Assembly: GCA_048938895.1 (NCBI GenBank)
Contig: JBHLLU010000023.1
Location: forward strand, 2,147-63,088
Source: Promethearchaeota archaeon
Lineage (GTDB): Archaea; Asgardarchaeota; Lokiarchaeia; Sigyniarchaeales; SOKP01
Direction of reading: 5' to 3'
DNA length: 60,942 bases
Shown here in pieces: positions 6,711 to 46,462 of the stretch. Under the pieces are notes generated by a model. That model was not told the DNA's origin and did not search any database. It saw only the letters and a list, made by a program, of their open reading frames with translations. A program made the translations under genes and the position numbers. Each line of letters begins with the position of its first letter. Position 1 is the stretch's first letter.

Positions 6711-6782
6711 TGCGTCGCCCGGGAATCGAACCCGGGTCACTGGCTTGGAAGGCCAGAATCCTAACCCCTAGACTAGCGACGC
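6711..6782 (-). tRNA. tRNA-Gly(TCC), intronless
   Basis: GCGTCGC acceptor stem, CTGGC-CTTCCAA-GCCAG anticodon arm, CCGGG-TTCGATT-CCCGG T arm. Confidence 0.95.
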
Positions 6783-9677: not shown

Positions 9678-9762
9678 TTTCTTTAAATTATTGACTTTAA
9701 GTATTTTTTCTTGTTTTAAACCCAAATTTTTTGATGAACGAAAAAATTTAGCAATGTAAAGG

Positions 9763-10443
9763 ATGACAATATTAAGATCGCAAATTTTTGGCCGAAGTTT
9801 AATTGGAGTATATCTTAATGCTAATAATTCATACGTACTTTATCCCCCTAAATTATTAAAACCACCATTAAAGAAGTTTACAAATACATTTTCAGAGCCT
9901 TTTTATCCGTTAACAATTAATAATTCCAGTTTGTTAGGTGTCTATATAGCTTCAAACAAGTATGGTATAATAGTTCCCCATATTATAAAGGACGATGAAT
10001 TAGAAAAACTAAAAAAACTTTTAGATGAAGGTAATTTTTCTTCTCAAATTTGCGTACTTAAATCGATCGATAATGCATTTGGGAATTTAATTCTATGCAA
10101 TGATAGAGGTGCCATTATTAGTTCTTTTTTAAGTGATTACAGAGAGGATATAGAAAATACCTTGAATGTGGAGACTGTAGTATATGAATTTGCCAATAAT
10201 TATCTCCCTGGTTCTATCTCATTAGTTAATAATCATGGTTGTGTAGTTCATCCTCTTTCAAAAGATGATGAAATCGAATATATCACATCTATTTTGAAGG
10301 TTGATGAAGTTGATGTTTCTACAGTTAATCGTGGTATACCTTATTTGGGATCTGGCGCAATTGTAAATGATAATAGTGGAATCTTTGGCAATGATTCCAC
10401 TGGACCAGAACTCCAGAGGATTACTAGTGTATTACAATTGTAG
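9763..10443 (+). CDS. eif6: Translation initiation factor 6 (aIF6)
   Basis: GNLILCND, STVNRG.PYLGSG..VND, STGPEL. Confidence 0.95.
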   Translation: MTILRSQIFGRSLIGVYLNANNSYVLYPPKLLKPPLKKFTNTFSEPFYPLTINNSSLLGVYIASNKYGIIVPHIIKDDELEKLKKLLDEGNFSSQICVLKSIDNAFGNLILCNDRGAIISSFLSDYREDIENTLNVETVVYEFANNYLPGSISLVNNHGCVVHPLSKDDEIEYITSILKVDEVDVSTVNRGIPYLGSGAIVNDNSGIFGNDSTGPELQRITSVLQL

Positions 10444-10585
10444 ACAATTAAAGCTTTAAGCTAGTGGGAATAATTAGTGTTTTAAAATTGTAAATAAATA
10501 ATAGGTCTTACTAAAAACCAAAATTTAATATTTTTTGAAATATTATCCTTTTTTAAAAGCTTTGATTCAATGGATCTAAAAGGCA

Positions 10586-12547: not shown

Positions 12548-13769
12548 TTAATAATAATAGACAACTAAATTTTCAGGAATCGATAATTCTTCTTCTTTGT
12601 TTTTACATGCAATAAACTTTATTTTCATGTTTAAAGTAAGTGATAGAAGTCTTTTCGTTAGAATTCCATCAATAATTAAGTATTGTGTATCCTTAAAAGC
12701 TCTAATTTTTTCAAAAATTTCATTTACAGGCATTTCGAATAATTTTTCAAGACTTTTAGTAAAACCAATACTATATCCAGATTGAATATTATTTATGGCT
12801 TCGATAATTACTGATTCGTCTTTGATTTTTGCTTTCTTTAGGTATTTTTGAAGTGTGGTTTCTTTAGTATCCAATTTTTTTCCTTTTGAACTCTCTGGTT
12901 TTATATCTTTTAAATCTTTTAGACTTCTTTTATTTTGTAGAGCCTTGATCATTTGCTTTCTTGTTAATTCTTCAACCTCATACCCATCAGGAGCCCTTGC
13001 AACAAAGTCTAGTTTTATAAGCTGCATTAATTCATTTAAAATAATGGTACCCCCACGATCACCATCAAGAAAACACGTCACAGTCTTTTTCTTTTTCGTT
13101 AAATTAATAACTGATTTGGGGATTTGAGTACCTTGAACTGCAATTGAGTTTTTAATACCAATTCGCAGTAAATTTAAAACATCAGCTCGTCCTTCTACAA
13201 TAATGAGATCGGGATTCTTCTCTACTTCTGGACCTGCAGGTAGATTACCAGGCCCCCAAGATATGATTTCTCCAAGTTTTATATCCTTATCTATCTTTTC
13301 TTCAATTTCACTCTGTTCTAATGATTTCTGATCCCATTGCTTTAGAAGTTCAGCAGCTCTTTCTATAATTTTCTTACGTTTTGTTTCACGCACATCTCGA
13401 ATTTCGATGAGAGAAATTTCTGCTTCGCATGGACCAACTCGGGAAACAGTTTCAACAGTCGCCGCCAATAGTGCGGTCTCCTTTCGTGTTAGAGAGGAAG
13501 GAATTTTGATAATCCCTTCTGAAATACCCTCTTTAGAAATATTTTCTACTTCAATCCTTCCAATTCGTCCAGATTTTTGTAGATCTCTCAAATCCAAATC
13601 TAAAAGAAGACCTTCAGTATAGCCGATTTGCCGAAAAGGCTATTGAATTCTATCTTTGGCCGAAAATGGCGCCGACTATGTCGCTTTTTTCAACTACACC
13701 CTTAATTGTGAATTTAACTTCTATAATATATTTAGTTGTGAACTCATTTTGATCTGTAATCTTGATCAC
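12548..13769 (-). CDS. dnaG: Archaeal DnaG (exosome-associated TOPRIM protein), spliced: exon 1 13769-13656, exon 2 13618-12548, 394 aa
   Basis: Exon 1 (GTG, after AGGAAG) MIKITDQNEFTTKYIIEVKFTIKGVVEKSDIVGAIFGQ joins TEGLLLDLDLRDLQKSGRIGRIEV; TOPRIM IIVEGRADV and DGDRGG. The ORF track shows only the exon-2 part. Confidence 0.9.
13619..13655 (-). other. 37-nt BHB/BHL-type intron in dnaG mRNA
   Basis: AGATAGAATTCAATAGCCTTTTCGGCAAATCGGCTAT; central helix GGCC/GGCT, 5' bulge AAA, intron helix GAT/ATC, exon helix ATTTTC/GAAGGT; contains in-frame TAG. Confidence 0.85.
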
Positions 13770-14047
13770 TTCCTTTCTGTTAATTAAATAAATTTCTAAT
13801 ATAAACTCAAATTTTATTTTATCTTAGGATTTAAATAATAGCTTGAATAATTTTGATTTTTATGAATCTATTTCTATATGAACTTTTTTTCTGTGATTAT
13901 AAACTTATAAGCATCATAATTGATGATTATAATTAATTTAATTAAATCAAGAATATATTTTTTGTCAATTTTTAAATTGATTGATTAGTTTTTTATGTCA
14001 TATTTGTTTTTGTAATATAATTCGAAAAAAGTATGATTTAATGCCAA

Positions 14048-17480: not shown

Positions 17481-17598
17481 CAAGAATACATTTCCTTTTT
17501 GGATCTATACAAATCAGATTTTACTAAATAATTAATAATTTTGGGTTATTAGAGAACTTAAGATGATCAAAAATAATCCATTGAATTAATCTCTCTTA

Positions 17599-19692
17599 TT
17601 GAAAAGAATGAGCAATTTTTTTGAGCTTTTAGAAAATAGAATTGGTTTTTCAAGAATAGGACGGATGAATTTATCAAAAGATAAAAAATTCTTTATCAGA
17701 ACTCCGAATGTTATTATTCCAATCAAAAATGTATTAATGAAACAATTTAATTTTATACAAGAATTTGAAGATCATGATTTATTCATTATATCTAAAGAGA
17801 TTTTTCTTAAAATTGGCTTTTTAAGAGAAAAATTTAGGGATACTGGTTTTATTTTTCATCATCCAGGTACATTGGAAAAATTTGAAAGTATCCTTTTAAA
17901 GAATTTAGATATTTTTTCAGAGGATAATGTTCTATCAATCATACCATTCAATATACCTACTACTGCTATGGGGCGAGAATTTGCAAAGAGAGAAATAGAA
18001 TCTTATATTAGTAATGCAGCAAAGATATTGGAAACTCATCGTAGTATTAACTTTGGTTTAACAATTAGACTCTTCGATTATTCAGAATTATTAGACTTAT
18101 ATTTACCAATTATAAAAGCAAATGAAAATATAAGAGTTTTAAATCTACATGGAATTTTTGATAACTTTAACAATTTTAGGAATATTGTCAACATAATTTT
18201 AAATTTAAAAAGCAAATTGGACAATAATCTTGTTTTAATGGCTTCTGGGAGAATTCTTCCAAAATTTTACCCGATTCTGGTGTATTTAGGAGTAGATTTA
18301 ATTGATTCTACATTTTTATTATATTTATCAGCAGAAAGTTTCTATGATACAATTGAATATTTATTGCCAATTTATAAAGTTAAATACTTCCCCTGTTCTT
18401 GCGTTGCATGTAAAGGAAATTTAAAAAATTTGTGTGATGTTAAACATTCCATAGATAAAATAGATTTACTTTGTTTACATAATCTAATTTCCGCTAATAA
18501 TTATATGATGAAGGTAAAACAATATCTTCGATTTGAGGATTACCGTGCATTTGTTGAGAAATCGTCTTTAGATGATACAAATATAATATCAACATTGAAA
18601 ATCTTAGATAGAGATTATTTCGATTTTGTAAGATATGATACACCAATTACTCAAAAGGATAAGAAAATAAAATGTTTAGGCCCTTCATCTTATGATCGTC
18701 CTGATTTTAGAGAATTTAGGGAGAGAACTGTGAATATATTTAAGCCAGAAGAATGGACCACTTTAATCATTCTACTTCCATGTTCTGCAAAAAAGCCCTA
18801 CTCTACTTCGAAATCACATAAATTATTTCACAACTCAATAAGAAAATTTCCAGAGTTTCCAAATTTTCAAGAAATAATTATTACTTCTCCTCTTGGAGCT
18901 ATTCCAAGGCAGCTAGAAAATCTATATCCAGTAAATTCATATGATATCTCTGTTACTGGAAATTGGGATGAGGAGGAGAAAAAAATTACCTCGAAGATGC
19001 TATTAGATCTTTTAAATAAGTATGATAAATCAATTCCAATTATTTCTCATCTTGAAGGAGAGTCGCTTGATATAGCAAAAAAGATTACATCTAGTTTAAC
19101 AAATAATTTCTTTATCTCAGTTGTTAATGAAAATCCAACTTCAAATGAATCCCTTACCATGCTTGAAAAATTAATACAAGAACATAAAAATGATTATAAA
19201 CCTAAGAAATGTTTATCAAAGGACAATTATTTATCAAAATCTTGGATTCGTAAATTAATTTATATATTAGATTATCAATTCGGAACTGGTTCAGGAATTA
19301 AGATAATTAAAAATGATTTAAAGTTAAAAAAAGCTAAAGCCAACCAACAAATTAATTTAATAGATATAAATACAAAGGAAAATCTAGGTTCGTTTATAAC
19401 CTCAACGGGTCAGATTAGTTTGAGCATTACCGGAATGAATCGTCTAGATCAAATACCATTTTCAATAGATTCAAATTTGATAGTATTTGATGGAAAAAGC
19501 ATTCGAGGGAATAATTTATTTCGAGCAGGTATTTTAGGTTATAGCTTGAATTTAATCCCAGAAAGTTATGTTAGAATTATTGATAAAGATAGAATTAATA
19601 TAATTGGGGTTGGAAAACTAATCGTTGGAACAAATTTTATAAAAAATTCTAAAACTGGAAGAATTGTTGAAATATATGAAAAAAAAAAATAG
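17599..19692 (+). CDS. arcS: Archaeosine synthase subunit alpha (TgtA2)
   Basis: TGT-like N-terminus, CSCVAC...H, LLPCSAKKPYSTSKSH, TSPLGAIPRQLE..YP...YDI.VTG.W, C-terminal PUA-like region. Confidence 0.85.
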   Translation: MKRMSNFFELLENRIGFSRIGRMNLSKDKKFFIRTPNVIIPIKNVLMKQFNFIQEFEDHDLFIISKEIFLKIGFLREKFRDTGFIFHHPGTLEKFESILLKNLDIFSEDNVLSIIPFNIPTTAMGREFAKREIESYISNAAKILETHRSINFGLTIRLFDYSELLDLYLPIIKANENIRVLNLHGIFDNFNNFRNIVNIILNLKSKLDNNLVLMASGRILPKFYPILVYLGVDLIDSTFLLYLSAESFYDTIEYLLPIYKVKYFPCSCVACKGNLKNLCDVKHSIDKIDLLCLHNLISANNYMMKVKQYLRFEDYRAFVEKSSLDDTNIISTLKILDRDYFDFVRYDTPITQKDKKIKCLGPSSYDRPDFREFRERTVNIFKPEEWTTLIILLPCSAKKPYSTSKSHKLFHNSIRKFPEFPNFQEIIITSPLGAIPRQLENLYPVNSYDISVTGNWDEEEKKITSKMLLDLLNKYDKSIPIISHLEGESLDIAKKITSSLTNNFFISVVNENPTSNESLTMLEKLIQEHKNDYKPKKCLSKDNYLSKSWIRKLIYILDYQFGTGSGIKIIKNDLKLKKAKANQQINLIDINTKENLGSFITSTGQISLSITGMNRLDQIPFSIDSNLIVFDGKSIRGNNLFRAGILGYSLNLIPESYVRIIDKDRINIIGVGKLIVGTNFIKNSKTGRIVEIYEKKK

Positions 19693-44635: not shown

Positions 44636-45400
44636 TTATATTTTTTCTTCTAAGATCTTTCCACCATCAAATGAAATTATCCGGTCTGCTAAAGCAATTA
44701 GATCATCATCATGAGTAGCAATAATAATAGTTTTTTTGCTGGATTTTAAATCTTTAAAAAGCTTCTTAATAAATTGACTAGTTTTCTTATCTAAGTTAGC
44801 TGTTGGTTCATCAGCAAGTATTACTGGAGGATCATTTGCTAATGCTCTAGCGATAGAGACTCTTTGTTGTTCACCCGCAGATAATTGAAAGGGCAAATGT
44901 TCTCTTCTATCAGCTAGGTTCATAATTTTTAGCAGTTTTACAGCAGATGTTCTCTGATCTTCCAATTTCATTCCCGAGAGATTCATAGGAAACATTACAT
45001 TTTCTTCAGCTGTAAGAGTACTGATTAGATTATAATTCTGAAATATAAATCCTGAATTTATTAATCGAAATAAAGTAAGAGATTCCTGGTCCATATTTGA
45101 AATCGTTACTCCTTGATTATATACTATTCCTGAGTTTGGGGAATCTAAACCACCTAATAAATTTAATAAAGTTGTTTTTCCGGCTCCACTTGGGCCCGTA
45201 ATAACAATAAATTCACCTTCTTTTATTTCTAGTGACACATTATCAACAGCTTTAACAATAAAATCCCCGATTTCATAATTTTTAACCAGATCTTTGCAGT
45301 AAATTAGATAATCTTGATTTAAGGTTTTCTCTTCTAAAATTCCATTTTTCATTTCTTGAGTTTCTCCATAATTTTTTTCTTTCATTTCGAATTCATCCAT
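44636..45400 (-). CDS. ABC transporter ATPase, LolD/MacB type
   Basis: GPSGAGKTT, LSAGEQQR, ADEPTANLD, ATHD. Confidence 0.9.
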   Translation of the reverse strand: MDEFEMKEKNYGETQEMKNGILEEKTLNQDYLIYCKDLVKNYEIGDFIVKAVDNVSLEIKEGEFIVITGPSGAGKTTLLNLLGGLDSPNSGIVYNQGVTISNMDQESLTLFRLINSGFIFQNYNLISTLTAEENVMFPMNLSGMKLEDQRTSAVKLLKIMNLADRREHLPFQLSAGEQQRVSIARALANDPPVILADEPTANLDKKTSQFIKKLFKDLKSSKKTIIIATHDDDLIALADRIISFDGGKILEEKI

Positions 45401-45577
45401 ATCTACTTCAGGCTATAGCTTAAGTTATGTATCTACGAATATATAGACTGTCTTAACTAGAGTTTTGATAAAAATACAATTTTTTAAAATTTAAAGTAAT
45501 GAATTATTATTGTATTTTAAAAATTTATGTAAGATTTTAAAATAAATTTAAATATTAAAGTTTCATACATAAATACT

Positions 45578-45721
45578 TGAGGGAAATCGAGAAAATAAAA
45601 ATATCCCCTAATTTCCTAATTAAAATGGTAACTAAATTATTTTTAAAATCTTAAACTTCCTTTTTAAGATTTTAACTTTTTCTCGTCTCCCTCACTCTGA
45701 TTCTTAGAACTAAAGTTCTAA
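45578..45721. repeat. Nested inverted repeats upstream of the corrinoid protein gene
   Basis: TGAGGGAAATCGAGAAAA (45578) / TTTTCTCGTCTCCCTCA (45678-45694); 13-bp hairpin 45643-45675; palindrome TTAGAACT-AA-AGTTCTAA 45704-45721. Confidence 0.7.
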
Positions 45722-45829
45722 AAGAGAATATCCTTTAATTATCTCTTTATAAAAAAACTTTAAAGGATTATTTTAATTACCAATAATAATTTTATTTAGT
45801 AATTTTGATAATAAAAAGTGTAGATCTTA

Positions 45830-46462
45830 ATGGATTTTGAAAAATTGACTGAATTAATTATTGAACTTGAAGTCGATGACATTGCTGCTGCCGTAAAAGA
45901 AGCATTAGACGAAGAAAAAGATCCATTTGACGTGTTAAATGCCCTAACTAAAGGAATGGATGAAGTGGGGCGTCGTTATGAGGAAAAAGAATATTATTTA
46001 ACTGAACTTGTGCTAGCTGGTGAAACCATGAAAGAGGCATTCGAAGTCTTGCAACCCGCGTTAGCAGCAGCTGATACATCAATAGAGAAAGTAAAAATAA
46101 TCTTAGCAACTGTTAAAGGTGATAATCATGACATTGGAAAAAATATACTTGGTTCTTTGTTATTAAGTTCAGGATTTGAACTTCATGATTTAGGAATGGA
46201 TGTAGATGAGAATGCAATTGTTGAAAAGGTAAAAGAAACAGGAGCAGCAATCATAGCTTTAAGTTCATTGCTAACGATGACAGTTGAGCAGATTCAAGTG
46301 GTGCATGAGGCTTTAAAAGCAGCAGGTCTTAGGGATAAGGTAAAATTAATTGTGGGCGGTGCCCCTCTAAATGAAGAGCTAGCTAAAAAATTAGGCGCTG
46401 ATGATTTCGCTGACGATGCGGTAGAGGGAGTAAAACATATCAAAAAATTAGCAGGGCAATAA
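45830..46462 (+). CDS. Corrinoid (B12-binding) methyltransferase cognate protein
   Basis: Cap domain plus GDNHDIGKN, SSLLTMT, VGGAP. Confidence 0.9.
   Translation: MDFEKLTELIIELEVDDIAAAVKEALDEEKDPFDVLNALTKGMDEVGRRYEEKEYYLTELVLAGETMKEAFEVLQPALAAADTSIEKVKIILATVKGDNHDIGKNILGSLLLSSGFELHDLGMDVDENAIVEKVKETGAAIIALSSLLTMTVEQIQVVHEALKAAGLRDKVKLIVGGAPLNEELAKKLGADDFADDAVEGVKHIKKLAGQ

Follow-up and report, generated by a model that had tools for sequence, protein, structure and literature searches.

A probable bulge-helix-bulge intron interrupts the dnaG coding sequence of a Promethearchaeota genome and recurs among its relatives

The classic archaeal mRNA intron is that of the cbf5 pre-mRNA in the Crenarchaeota (Desulfurococcales and Sulfolobales), which has a patchy gain-and-loss distribution and is found in hosts with a hetero-oligomeric splicing endonuclease, EndA (PMC2738675). 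A 2023 review counts two or more genes of archaea as spliced at the motif known as bulge-helix-bulge (BHB), namely cbf5 and HVO_1309 (PMC10485636). The motif consists of two 3-nucleotide (nt) bulges with a 4-bp helix between them and lies at the intron-exon boundary (PMC5829648). Here we describe an insert of 37 nt in the dnaG gene of a Promethearchaeota (Loki-type Asgard) genome, assembly GCA_048938895.1, within a stretch of 60,942 nt of contig JBHLLU010000023.1 (positions 2,147 to 63,088), hereafter the window, in whose numbering all positions are given. Archaeal DnaG has been described as an RNA-binding subunit of the archaeal exosome (PMC7667871). An original prediction, made from the letters of the window, had read this insert as a BHB-type mRNA intron that splits the conserved GAIFGQ|TEGLL motif. 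Comparison with related genomes makes it very likely that the 37 nt at 13655..13619 are indeed an archaeal BHB intron in the dnaG coding sequence, and the insert is very probably cut out of the dnaG mRNA.

As with the cbf5 intron, the insert shows a pattern of repeated gain or loss, with at least eight changes on the gene tree. It differs from the cbf5 case in the gene, in the phylum (Asgard/Promethearchaeota rather than Thermoproteota) and in the presence of a second insertion site, 21 nt upstream, in the dnaG of relatives, and also in that the splicing of dnaG is inferred from sequence; cbf5 itself is uninterrupted in this genome. In the HVO_1309 mRNA of Haloferax volcanii, as we propose for dnaG, a BHB is cleaved by the splicing endonuclease of archaea; the host differs, being a euryarchaeon in which EndA is a homodimer. 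Closer in phylogeny, Asgard tRNA genes are reported to be heavily interrupted (PMC11291895; preprint 10.64898/2026.10.13.758758), and their BHB introns share with the dnaG intron the motif and the presumed enzymes; unlike them, the dnaG mRNA has no tRNA body to position the enzyme, and its exon strands also encode protein. When ARAGORN was run on the present genome, it called 34 tRNA genes and introns in 17 of them, some of the calls being clearly wrong ("introns" of 2807 and 771 nt), and these counts suggest that many multiply interrupted tRNA genes are missed by standard tools. In the unconventional HAC1/XBP1 splicing of eukaryotes, a protein endonuclease cuts an mRNA intron at small stem-loops and a tRNA ligase, RtcB in metazoa, joins the ends, with a change of frame. 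There the nuclease is IRE1, not EndA/TSEN, and splicing is a regulated stress switch, whereas the dnaG case shows no sign of regulation; the role of RtcB in XBP-1 splicing is mentioned in PMC8718801. In the literature searched, BHB introns were reported for no protein-coding gene of Asgard archaea, and the terms "mRNA" and "dnaG" have 0 occurrences in the Asgard tRNA preprint; interrupted protein genes might appear in the supplements to the papers on Asgard tRNA introns.

The dnaG gene lies on the minus strand, as do all of its features given below, and is composed of exon 1 (13769..13656), the insert (13655..13619, AGAUAG...GGCUAU) and exon 2 (13618..12548). Exon 1 starts with GTG at 13769 and runs for 38 codons to the residues GAIFGQ, the final CAA occupying 13658..13656, after which the frame meets AGA and then a TAG stop at 13652..13650. 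The conserved continuation TEGLLLDLDLRDLQKSGRIGRI picks up at 13618, 37 nt downstream and in a different frame, and from TEGLL the frame stays open for 356 codons up to the stop at 12548..12550. This reading of the split gene agrees with the original prediction and is borne out by the NCBIfam profile NF003108 (DnaG), in which residues 13-38 of exon 1 correspond to positions 1-26 and residues 1-256 of exon 2 to positions 27-283; since the profile runs from 26 to 27 over the break, the insert costs dnaG no profile position. Exon 2 also matches positions 313-417, scores 358.6 bits against the profile (cut-off 300) and contains a Toprim domain (Toprim_4 in Pfam). The junction allows two equivalent registers, A13655 being identical to A13618, and the BHB register is one of both. 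An intact dnaG paralogue elsewhere would have counted against an intron; it was looked for in the whole genome (4.65 Mb in 174 contigs), and dnaG was found at this one locus only.

Of 154 genomes of the order that were then queried with exon 2, a DnaG match was obtained in 145. Junction regions were taken from all matches with an open frame ending at the match start, plus a set of others, and 79 junctions were readable; in the rest of the order, the frame upstream of the match is open over some 390 amino acids or more, and these genomes were taken as uninterrupted without being read one by one. In 52 of the 79 junctions, an insert falls precisely between the Gln codon and the Thr codon (the Q|T site), the same junction as in the window, while 4 have an insert 21 nt upstream and 23 are uninterrupted. 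The 52 carriers among the 145 DnaG-matching genomes comprise 15 of the 54 genomes of the window's own genus, 36 from other genera of the family and a single genome, G026, from another family. Their inserts are 29-43 nt long (37 nt in 17 of them) and make up 42 distinct sequences. The length is not a multiple of 3 in 48 of the 52, the remaining 4 hold in-frame stops, and a stop falls within the first three insert codons in every case; the inserts are thus not readable through. The short forms (29-32 nt), found in several other genera and in G026, are simple hairpins of 5-9 bp, and the long forms of the window's own genus add an inner GCC/GGC hairpin. The Q|T insert was also present in 15 of the 68 readable environmental sequences among 80 metagenome contigs. 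In the bin G129, dnaG is present twice (C40 and C91), as an uninterrupted copy and as a copy that has the Q|T insert, which could reflect a strain mixture or a true duplicate.

Around the junction, the predicted structure of the window's transcript consists, from 5' to 3', of an exon helix, a 4-bp helix, an AA|a bulge, an intron helix-loop-helix, the other strand of the 4-bp helix, a 3' bulge and the exon helix again. In the central helix, GGCC on the exon strand (13658..13661; the Gly codon and the C of the Gln codon) pairs with GGCU on the intron strand (13621..13624). The 5' bulge, AAa (13655..13657), has its register from the junction in the DnaG profile, with the putative cut at 13656/13655. 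On the 3' side, the bulge au|A together with an unpaired CU makes a relaxed loop of 5 nt (13616..13620), with the putative cut at 13619/13618; this side is relaxed because the base after the 3' bulge is unable to pair with C13662. Compared with the definition of two 3-nt bulges, the 5' bulge is thus exactly 3 nt, as it is in all 52 copies, and the 3' bulge carries two further unpaired bases; in 47 of the 52 relatives it reads aa|A. The motif is flanked by a short intron helix, h', formed by GAU (13652..13654) and AUC (13625..13627), and by an exon-exon helix, h, formed by AUUUUC (13662..13667; Ile and Phe codons) and GAAGGU (13610..13615; Glu and Gly codons). Inside the intron, the long-type hairpin GCC-UUUUC-GGC (13630..13640) is paired in every row with letters there and absent from the 29-32 nt forms. 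All of the pairings that had been named from the letters (GGCC/GGCU, GAU/AUC and AUUUUC/GAAGGU), along with the AAA bulge and the unpaired AUACU at 13620..13616, are therefore present. EndA cleaves after the second base of each bulge. Cuts placed accordingly, on each strand two bases 3' of the helix, would give ...GGC CAA|ACU GAA..., restoring GAIFGQ|TEGLL as had been foreseen, and this matches the junction both of the DnaG profile and of the intron-less relatives. Furthermore, the tRNA-Met intron of the same genome fits the same geometry and also has an aa|A 3' bulge. It was also seen, at 13619-13661 of the window, that the long-type intron closes, on its 3' side, with a segment (A/UUCGGCUAA) similar to that which ends exon 1 (UUCGGCCAA), and that G020 and G015 (loci L014 and L016) hold this segment twice in tandem.

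The support for the central helix comes from the relatives. In all 52 copies, all 4 pairs form between the exon GGNC, which precedes the final two bases of exon 1, and the four bases that precede the final two of the insert. The combinations are GGCC/GGCU in 28, GGUC/GGCU in 9, GGGC/GCCU and GGAC/GUCU in 5 each, GGAC/GUUU and GGGC/GUCU in 2 each, and GGAC/GUUC in 1. Thus, at pair 3, which contains the Gly wobble base, five pair types occur among the 45 distinct rows (CG 28, AU 7, UG 6, GC 2 and GU 2). The Gly wobble base is the sole position of the exon helix strand that can change without altering the protein, and it is exactly this position that varies, with the insert following. When the central helix, h', h and the inner hairpin, the four named helices, were counted on a MAFFT alignment of the 45 distinct rows, 94.5% of the cells were paired, versus 24.7-54.1% with the partners slid by 1-3 columns. 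Changes on both sides were found in 13 cells against a shuffled mean of 2.6, and the covariation score was 0.151 against a shuffled mean of 0.100; 0 of 500 shuffles reached either value. By helix, the paired cells amounted to 100% for the central helix, 93.3% for h' (3 bp), with a compensatory GAC/GUC in G026, and 89.3% for h (6 pairs), the conservation of which is not independent evidence because h is built of the Ile-Phe and Glu-Gly codons. Sturdier than the shuffles, in our view, are the controls with slid partners and the occurrence of five pair types at a single position.

The genome also encodes the enzymes that such an intron would need. Two EndA-domain genes, of 202 and 200 amino acids, score 101.5 and 68.1 bits in Pfam and 110.1 and 82.6 bits against TIGR00324 (cut-off 59.6), and RtcB is encoded as well (566.5 bits); the EndA genes lie at the loci C83 and C123. 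One of the EndA paralogues is closest to the structure chains 3P1Z and 3AJV (E = 7e-35), which we take to be crenarchaeal heterotetrameric EndA enzymes, and the other is more divergent. Asgard EndA has been assigned to the (alpha-beta)2 type, with an L1 loop tied to a broad substrate range and acceptance of relaxed motifs (PMC5829648). The two paralogues suggest a broad-specificity (alpha-beta)2 endonuclease, the heterotetramer being proposed from the presence of both genes together with that report. As for exon 1, its ratio of non-synonymous to synonymous polymorphism (pN/pS) is 0.20 and none of 51 intron-bearing copies has a stop in it. Judged from these values, exon 1 is still coding and under purifying selection, and the claim that dnaG is not a pseudogene holds, with a single copy in the genome and an open exon 2.

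We thus propose the following pathway, in which cleavage, ligation and their efficiency are what we infer. In the pre-mRNA, the 4-bp central helix would arise by pairing of GGCC at the end of exon 1 with GGCU at the intron's 3' end; the 5' splice site would lie in the 3-nt bulge AA|a and the 3' splice site in the relaxed bulge au|A followed by CU. The motif would be flanked by the short intron helix GAU/AUC with the GCC/GGC hairpin on one side and by the exon-exon helix AUUUUC/GAAGGU on the other. On each strand, the splicing endonuclease would then cleave two bases 3' of the central helix, after which RtcB would ligate the exons into ...UUC GGC CAA|ACU GAA..., from which full-length DnaG could be translated. 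On an unspliced mRNA, translation would terminate at the UAG, two codons into the intron.

Several other explanations were weighed against splicing by EndA and RtcB. In programmed ribosomal bypass, as in phage T4 gene 60, the ribosome would take off before the insert and land on a matching codon at the insert end, so that no splicing would take place; the original prediction had kept this possibility as a GGC-to-GGC bypass. The window's copy does have GGC before the insert (13661..13659), another GGC near the insert end (13624..13622) and a stop soon after the take-off site. However, after landing on the Gly-like triplet at the 3' end of the insert, the next codon would be a stop in 49 of the 52 copies (48 TAA and 1 TAG), which excludes such a bypass in the relatives. 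In addition, G026 and the short forms have GGG or GGA as the exon Gly codon and an insert without a matching codon, the product of the window's copy would read G-Y-T-E where G-Q-T-E is conserved, and complementary covariation between exon and insert is expected of an RNA helix, not of codon matching. We therefore consider bypass exceedingly improbable. A gene broken or split for good is slightly more probable; in its favor, splicing has so far been deduced, and a TTG at 13597 opens an open reading frame (ORF) of 349 codons, from which exon 2 could be translated alone while exon 1 would be dead or a separate 40-residue peptide. Yet 30 of the 52 copies contain no ATG, GTG or TTG within the first 10 codons of exon 2, and the purifying selection on exon 1 of the insert-bearing copies, with its lack of stops, speaks against decay. 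Moreover, the insert ends covary with the exon, whereas a dead insertion would not keep such pairing; the break lies inside a conserved motif with no profile position lost, and no second dnaG copy exists in the genome to take over. A gene left split is thus very unlikely.

That the RNA is removed by something other than EndA and RtcB, either another nuclease-ligase pair or a self-processing RNA, is very unlikely too. In favor of such a removal, the bulge on the 3' side departs from the canonical form, a fold other than the BHB has the minimum free energy (MFE), and the role of EndA in this lineage is deduced from sequence. On the other hand, the BHB geometry, with a central helix of 4 bp, a 5' bulge of 3 nt and, on each strand, a cut two bases 3' of the helix, is repeated at five independent insert sites, and the EndA paralogues and RtcB are encoded. 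An artefact of sequencing or assembly might be suspected in a metagenome-assembled genome of 174 contigs with an estimated contamination of 7.5%, but this one site is occupied by 42 distinct, related inserts in 52 genomes that were assembled separately, and by inserts in 15 environmental contigs; such recurrence leaves an assembly artefact with practically no probability. Two further candidates were rejected. A group I or II self-splicing intron has a ribozyme core of hundreds of bases, for which 29-43 nt is far too short, and Rfam at its gathering threshold reported one tRNA only in the window. A repeated or mobile element was discarded as the insert sequence is unique to dnaG in the genome: with an nhmmer profile of the long-type inserts, the sole match in the whole genome was the dnaG copy (E = 1.2e-6; next 3.4).

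Several points nevertheless weigh against a BHB intron. Three of the four central pairs and the entire helix h are fixed by coding, so that the independent structural evidence comes down to one covarying pair and h'. The relatives share ancestry and are not independent samples, and the shuffle figures therefore overstate significance. The 3' bulge is non-canonical, with 5 nt rather than 3, and the check on the cut rule covered only one tRNA intron of the genome and the other insert sites. In a search for RNA sequencing runs that cover 12548-13800, none was listed, although such runs may exist. Among the 68 readable environmental contigs, no near-identical spliced twin of an insert-bearing allele was found, the insert-free copies looking like ordinary intron-less genomic alleles. 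As regards folding energy, a 76-nt stretch around the site has an MFE of -16.9 kcal/mol (z = -0.99), 31 of 200 shuffles fold equally well, and the BHB is the predicted MFE structure in 0 of the 52 sequences, with a median penalty of 3.7 kcal/mol (2.0 for the window's copy). A motif with two bulges that is recognized by a protein need not be the MFE structure, although this is still a real caveat. Folding energy was rejected as evidence in either direction; the support beyond chance is the comparison with relatives, of which folding energy forms no part.

For the window's copy, the MFE structure of the 76-nt stretch contains instead an alternative AUAGCC/GGCUAU pairing, which the original prediction had proposed as a possible regulator of splicing. 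This pairing is indeed present, but the relatives lend no support to a conserved regulatory switch. Only its GCC/GGC core, which is also used by the inner hairpin, is kept across relatives, while in 24 of 33 and in 29 of 34 distinct rows the outer pairs do not form, the covariation is no better than in shuffles, and the short-type introns do without this helix altogether. The rest of the BHB reading is supported by the recurrence in 52 genomes, the compensatory changes in a central helix that is complete in 52 of 52, and the presence of EndA and RtcB genes. The same prediction had called the dnaG insert a second intron; its "first" was not located in the window by synteny with the relatives G002, G004 and G049, a comparison that would miss an intron common to all four genomes. 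By this comparison, the dnaG insert is the only frame-breaking indel in the coding DNA of the window, and five adjacent same-strand ORF pairs in the window all proved to be distinct genes by Pfam, with no further split gene among them.

To place the insert in the history of the gene, a DnaG tree of 78 rows was made from exon 2 only (quick IQ-TREE, LG+G4). On this tree, the Q|T insert calls for no fewer than 8 changes, compared with a shuffled mean of 23.1, and at least 5 of them are forced by well-supported branches; two intron-less genomes are nested within the window's own insert-bearing clade. The second dnaG site, 21 nt upstream of the Q|T site, has an insert of 30-31 nt between SDI and VGAIFGQ (SDI|VG) in G053 (L041), G107 (L046), G101 (L047) and G145 (L052), and in the environmental loci L213, L220 and L230. 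Its helix is AGAU with GUUU, GUCU or AUCU and is fully paired in 4 of the 7 copies, the 30-nt forms hold in-frame stops, and the carriers are without the Q|T insert.

A screen for short frame-breaking indels between this genome and three relatives (about 794 kb of pairwise alignment) gave two genes, dnaG and a thioredoxin-like gene, all other indels being intergenic or in-frame. The latter gene (118 amino acids, WCGPC) is intact in the present genome at C51:40644-40997, and its relatives (L300 and L310-L325; G002:C1 near 288.6 kb) have inserts at three sites. Site T1, before WCGPC, has 30-32 nt at 8 loci with the helix CUG/CAG, or CCG/CGG in other genera. Site T2, after WCGPCK, has 30-32 nt at 6 loci with CAUG/CAUG, or CUUG/CAAG in G093, and site T3, PLGE|RFG, has 25 nt at 3 loci with GGCG/CGCU. 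Both T1 and T2 show compensatory changes, and G093 carries the two together. The same cut rule restores the frame at these four additional sites in relatives (dnaG SDI|VG and thioredoxin T1, T2 and T3). Taken at the level of sequence, the dnaG intron would thus be one member of a recurrent and apparently sparse class in this family. That this Loki-type Asgard family keeps a small, dynamic population of endonuclease-spliced mRNA introns, repeatedly gained and lost at several sites per gene, we hold to be slightly better than an even bet. Since GGCC and the CAUG of T2 are palindromic, a local duplication would pair with its own source, and new introns may arise by local duplication of a palindromic exon segment such as these. 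Apart from these inserts, a thioredoxin paralogue (L317, G089:C174:4182-4817) has TGA at the first Cys of CGPC (W-TGA-G-P-C) in an otherwise open frame, and the TGA may be a selenocysteine codon.

Other features of the window were seen in passing. At 10422-10477 (plus strand), at the 3' end of the gene 9760-10443, about 50 nt are present that G002, G004 and G049 lack. They repeat the last codons of the gene, in two near-identical copies of about 18 nt, and include a palindromic hairpin of the AAGCTT type; as the protein end is identical with or without this extra DNA, it is a duplication and not a needed intron. The tRNA-Gly(UCC) gene at 6711-6782 (minus strand) is free of a 21-nt insert that its orthologues in G002 and G049 hold, a presence/absence polymorphism of a tRNA intron among close relatives. 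An ORF of 700 amino acids at 17590-19689 (plus strand) resembles archaeosine-tRNA transglycosylase, matching Pfam TGT from profile position 210, with its first 194 residues unmatched. Rfam gave no match around 45200-46000 of the window.

If the dnaG insert is spliced as proposed, an essential, conserved gene would be added to the very few archaeal mRNAs with endonuclease-spliced introns, and the phenomenon would be placed in the Asgard archaea, the lineage closest to eukaryotes, in which an unusual abundance of introns is already known from the tRNA genes. With the 52 natural variants, a ready mutational series is at hand for the rules by which the Asgard endonuclease accepts a substrate other than tRNA. 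Gene callers will call such genes truncated or pseudogenes, and marker-gene sets and completeness estimates can suffer from it. Should the wider intron population prove true, the closest prokaryotic relatives of eukaryotes would routinely need mRNA splicing by protein enzymes for essential genes, and questions on the gain and loss of introns and on splicing prior to the spliceosome could be put to a direct test in the living relatives of the ancestor of eukaryotes.

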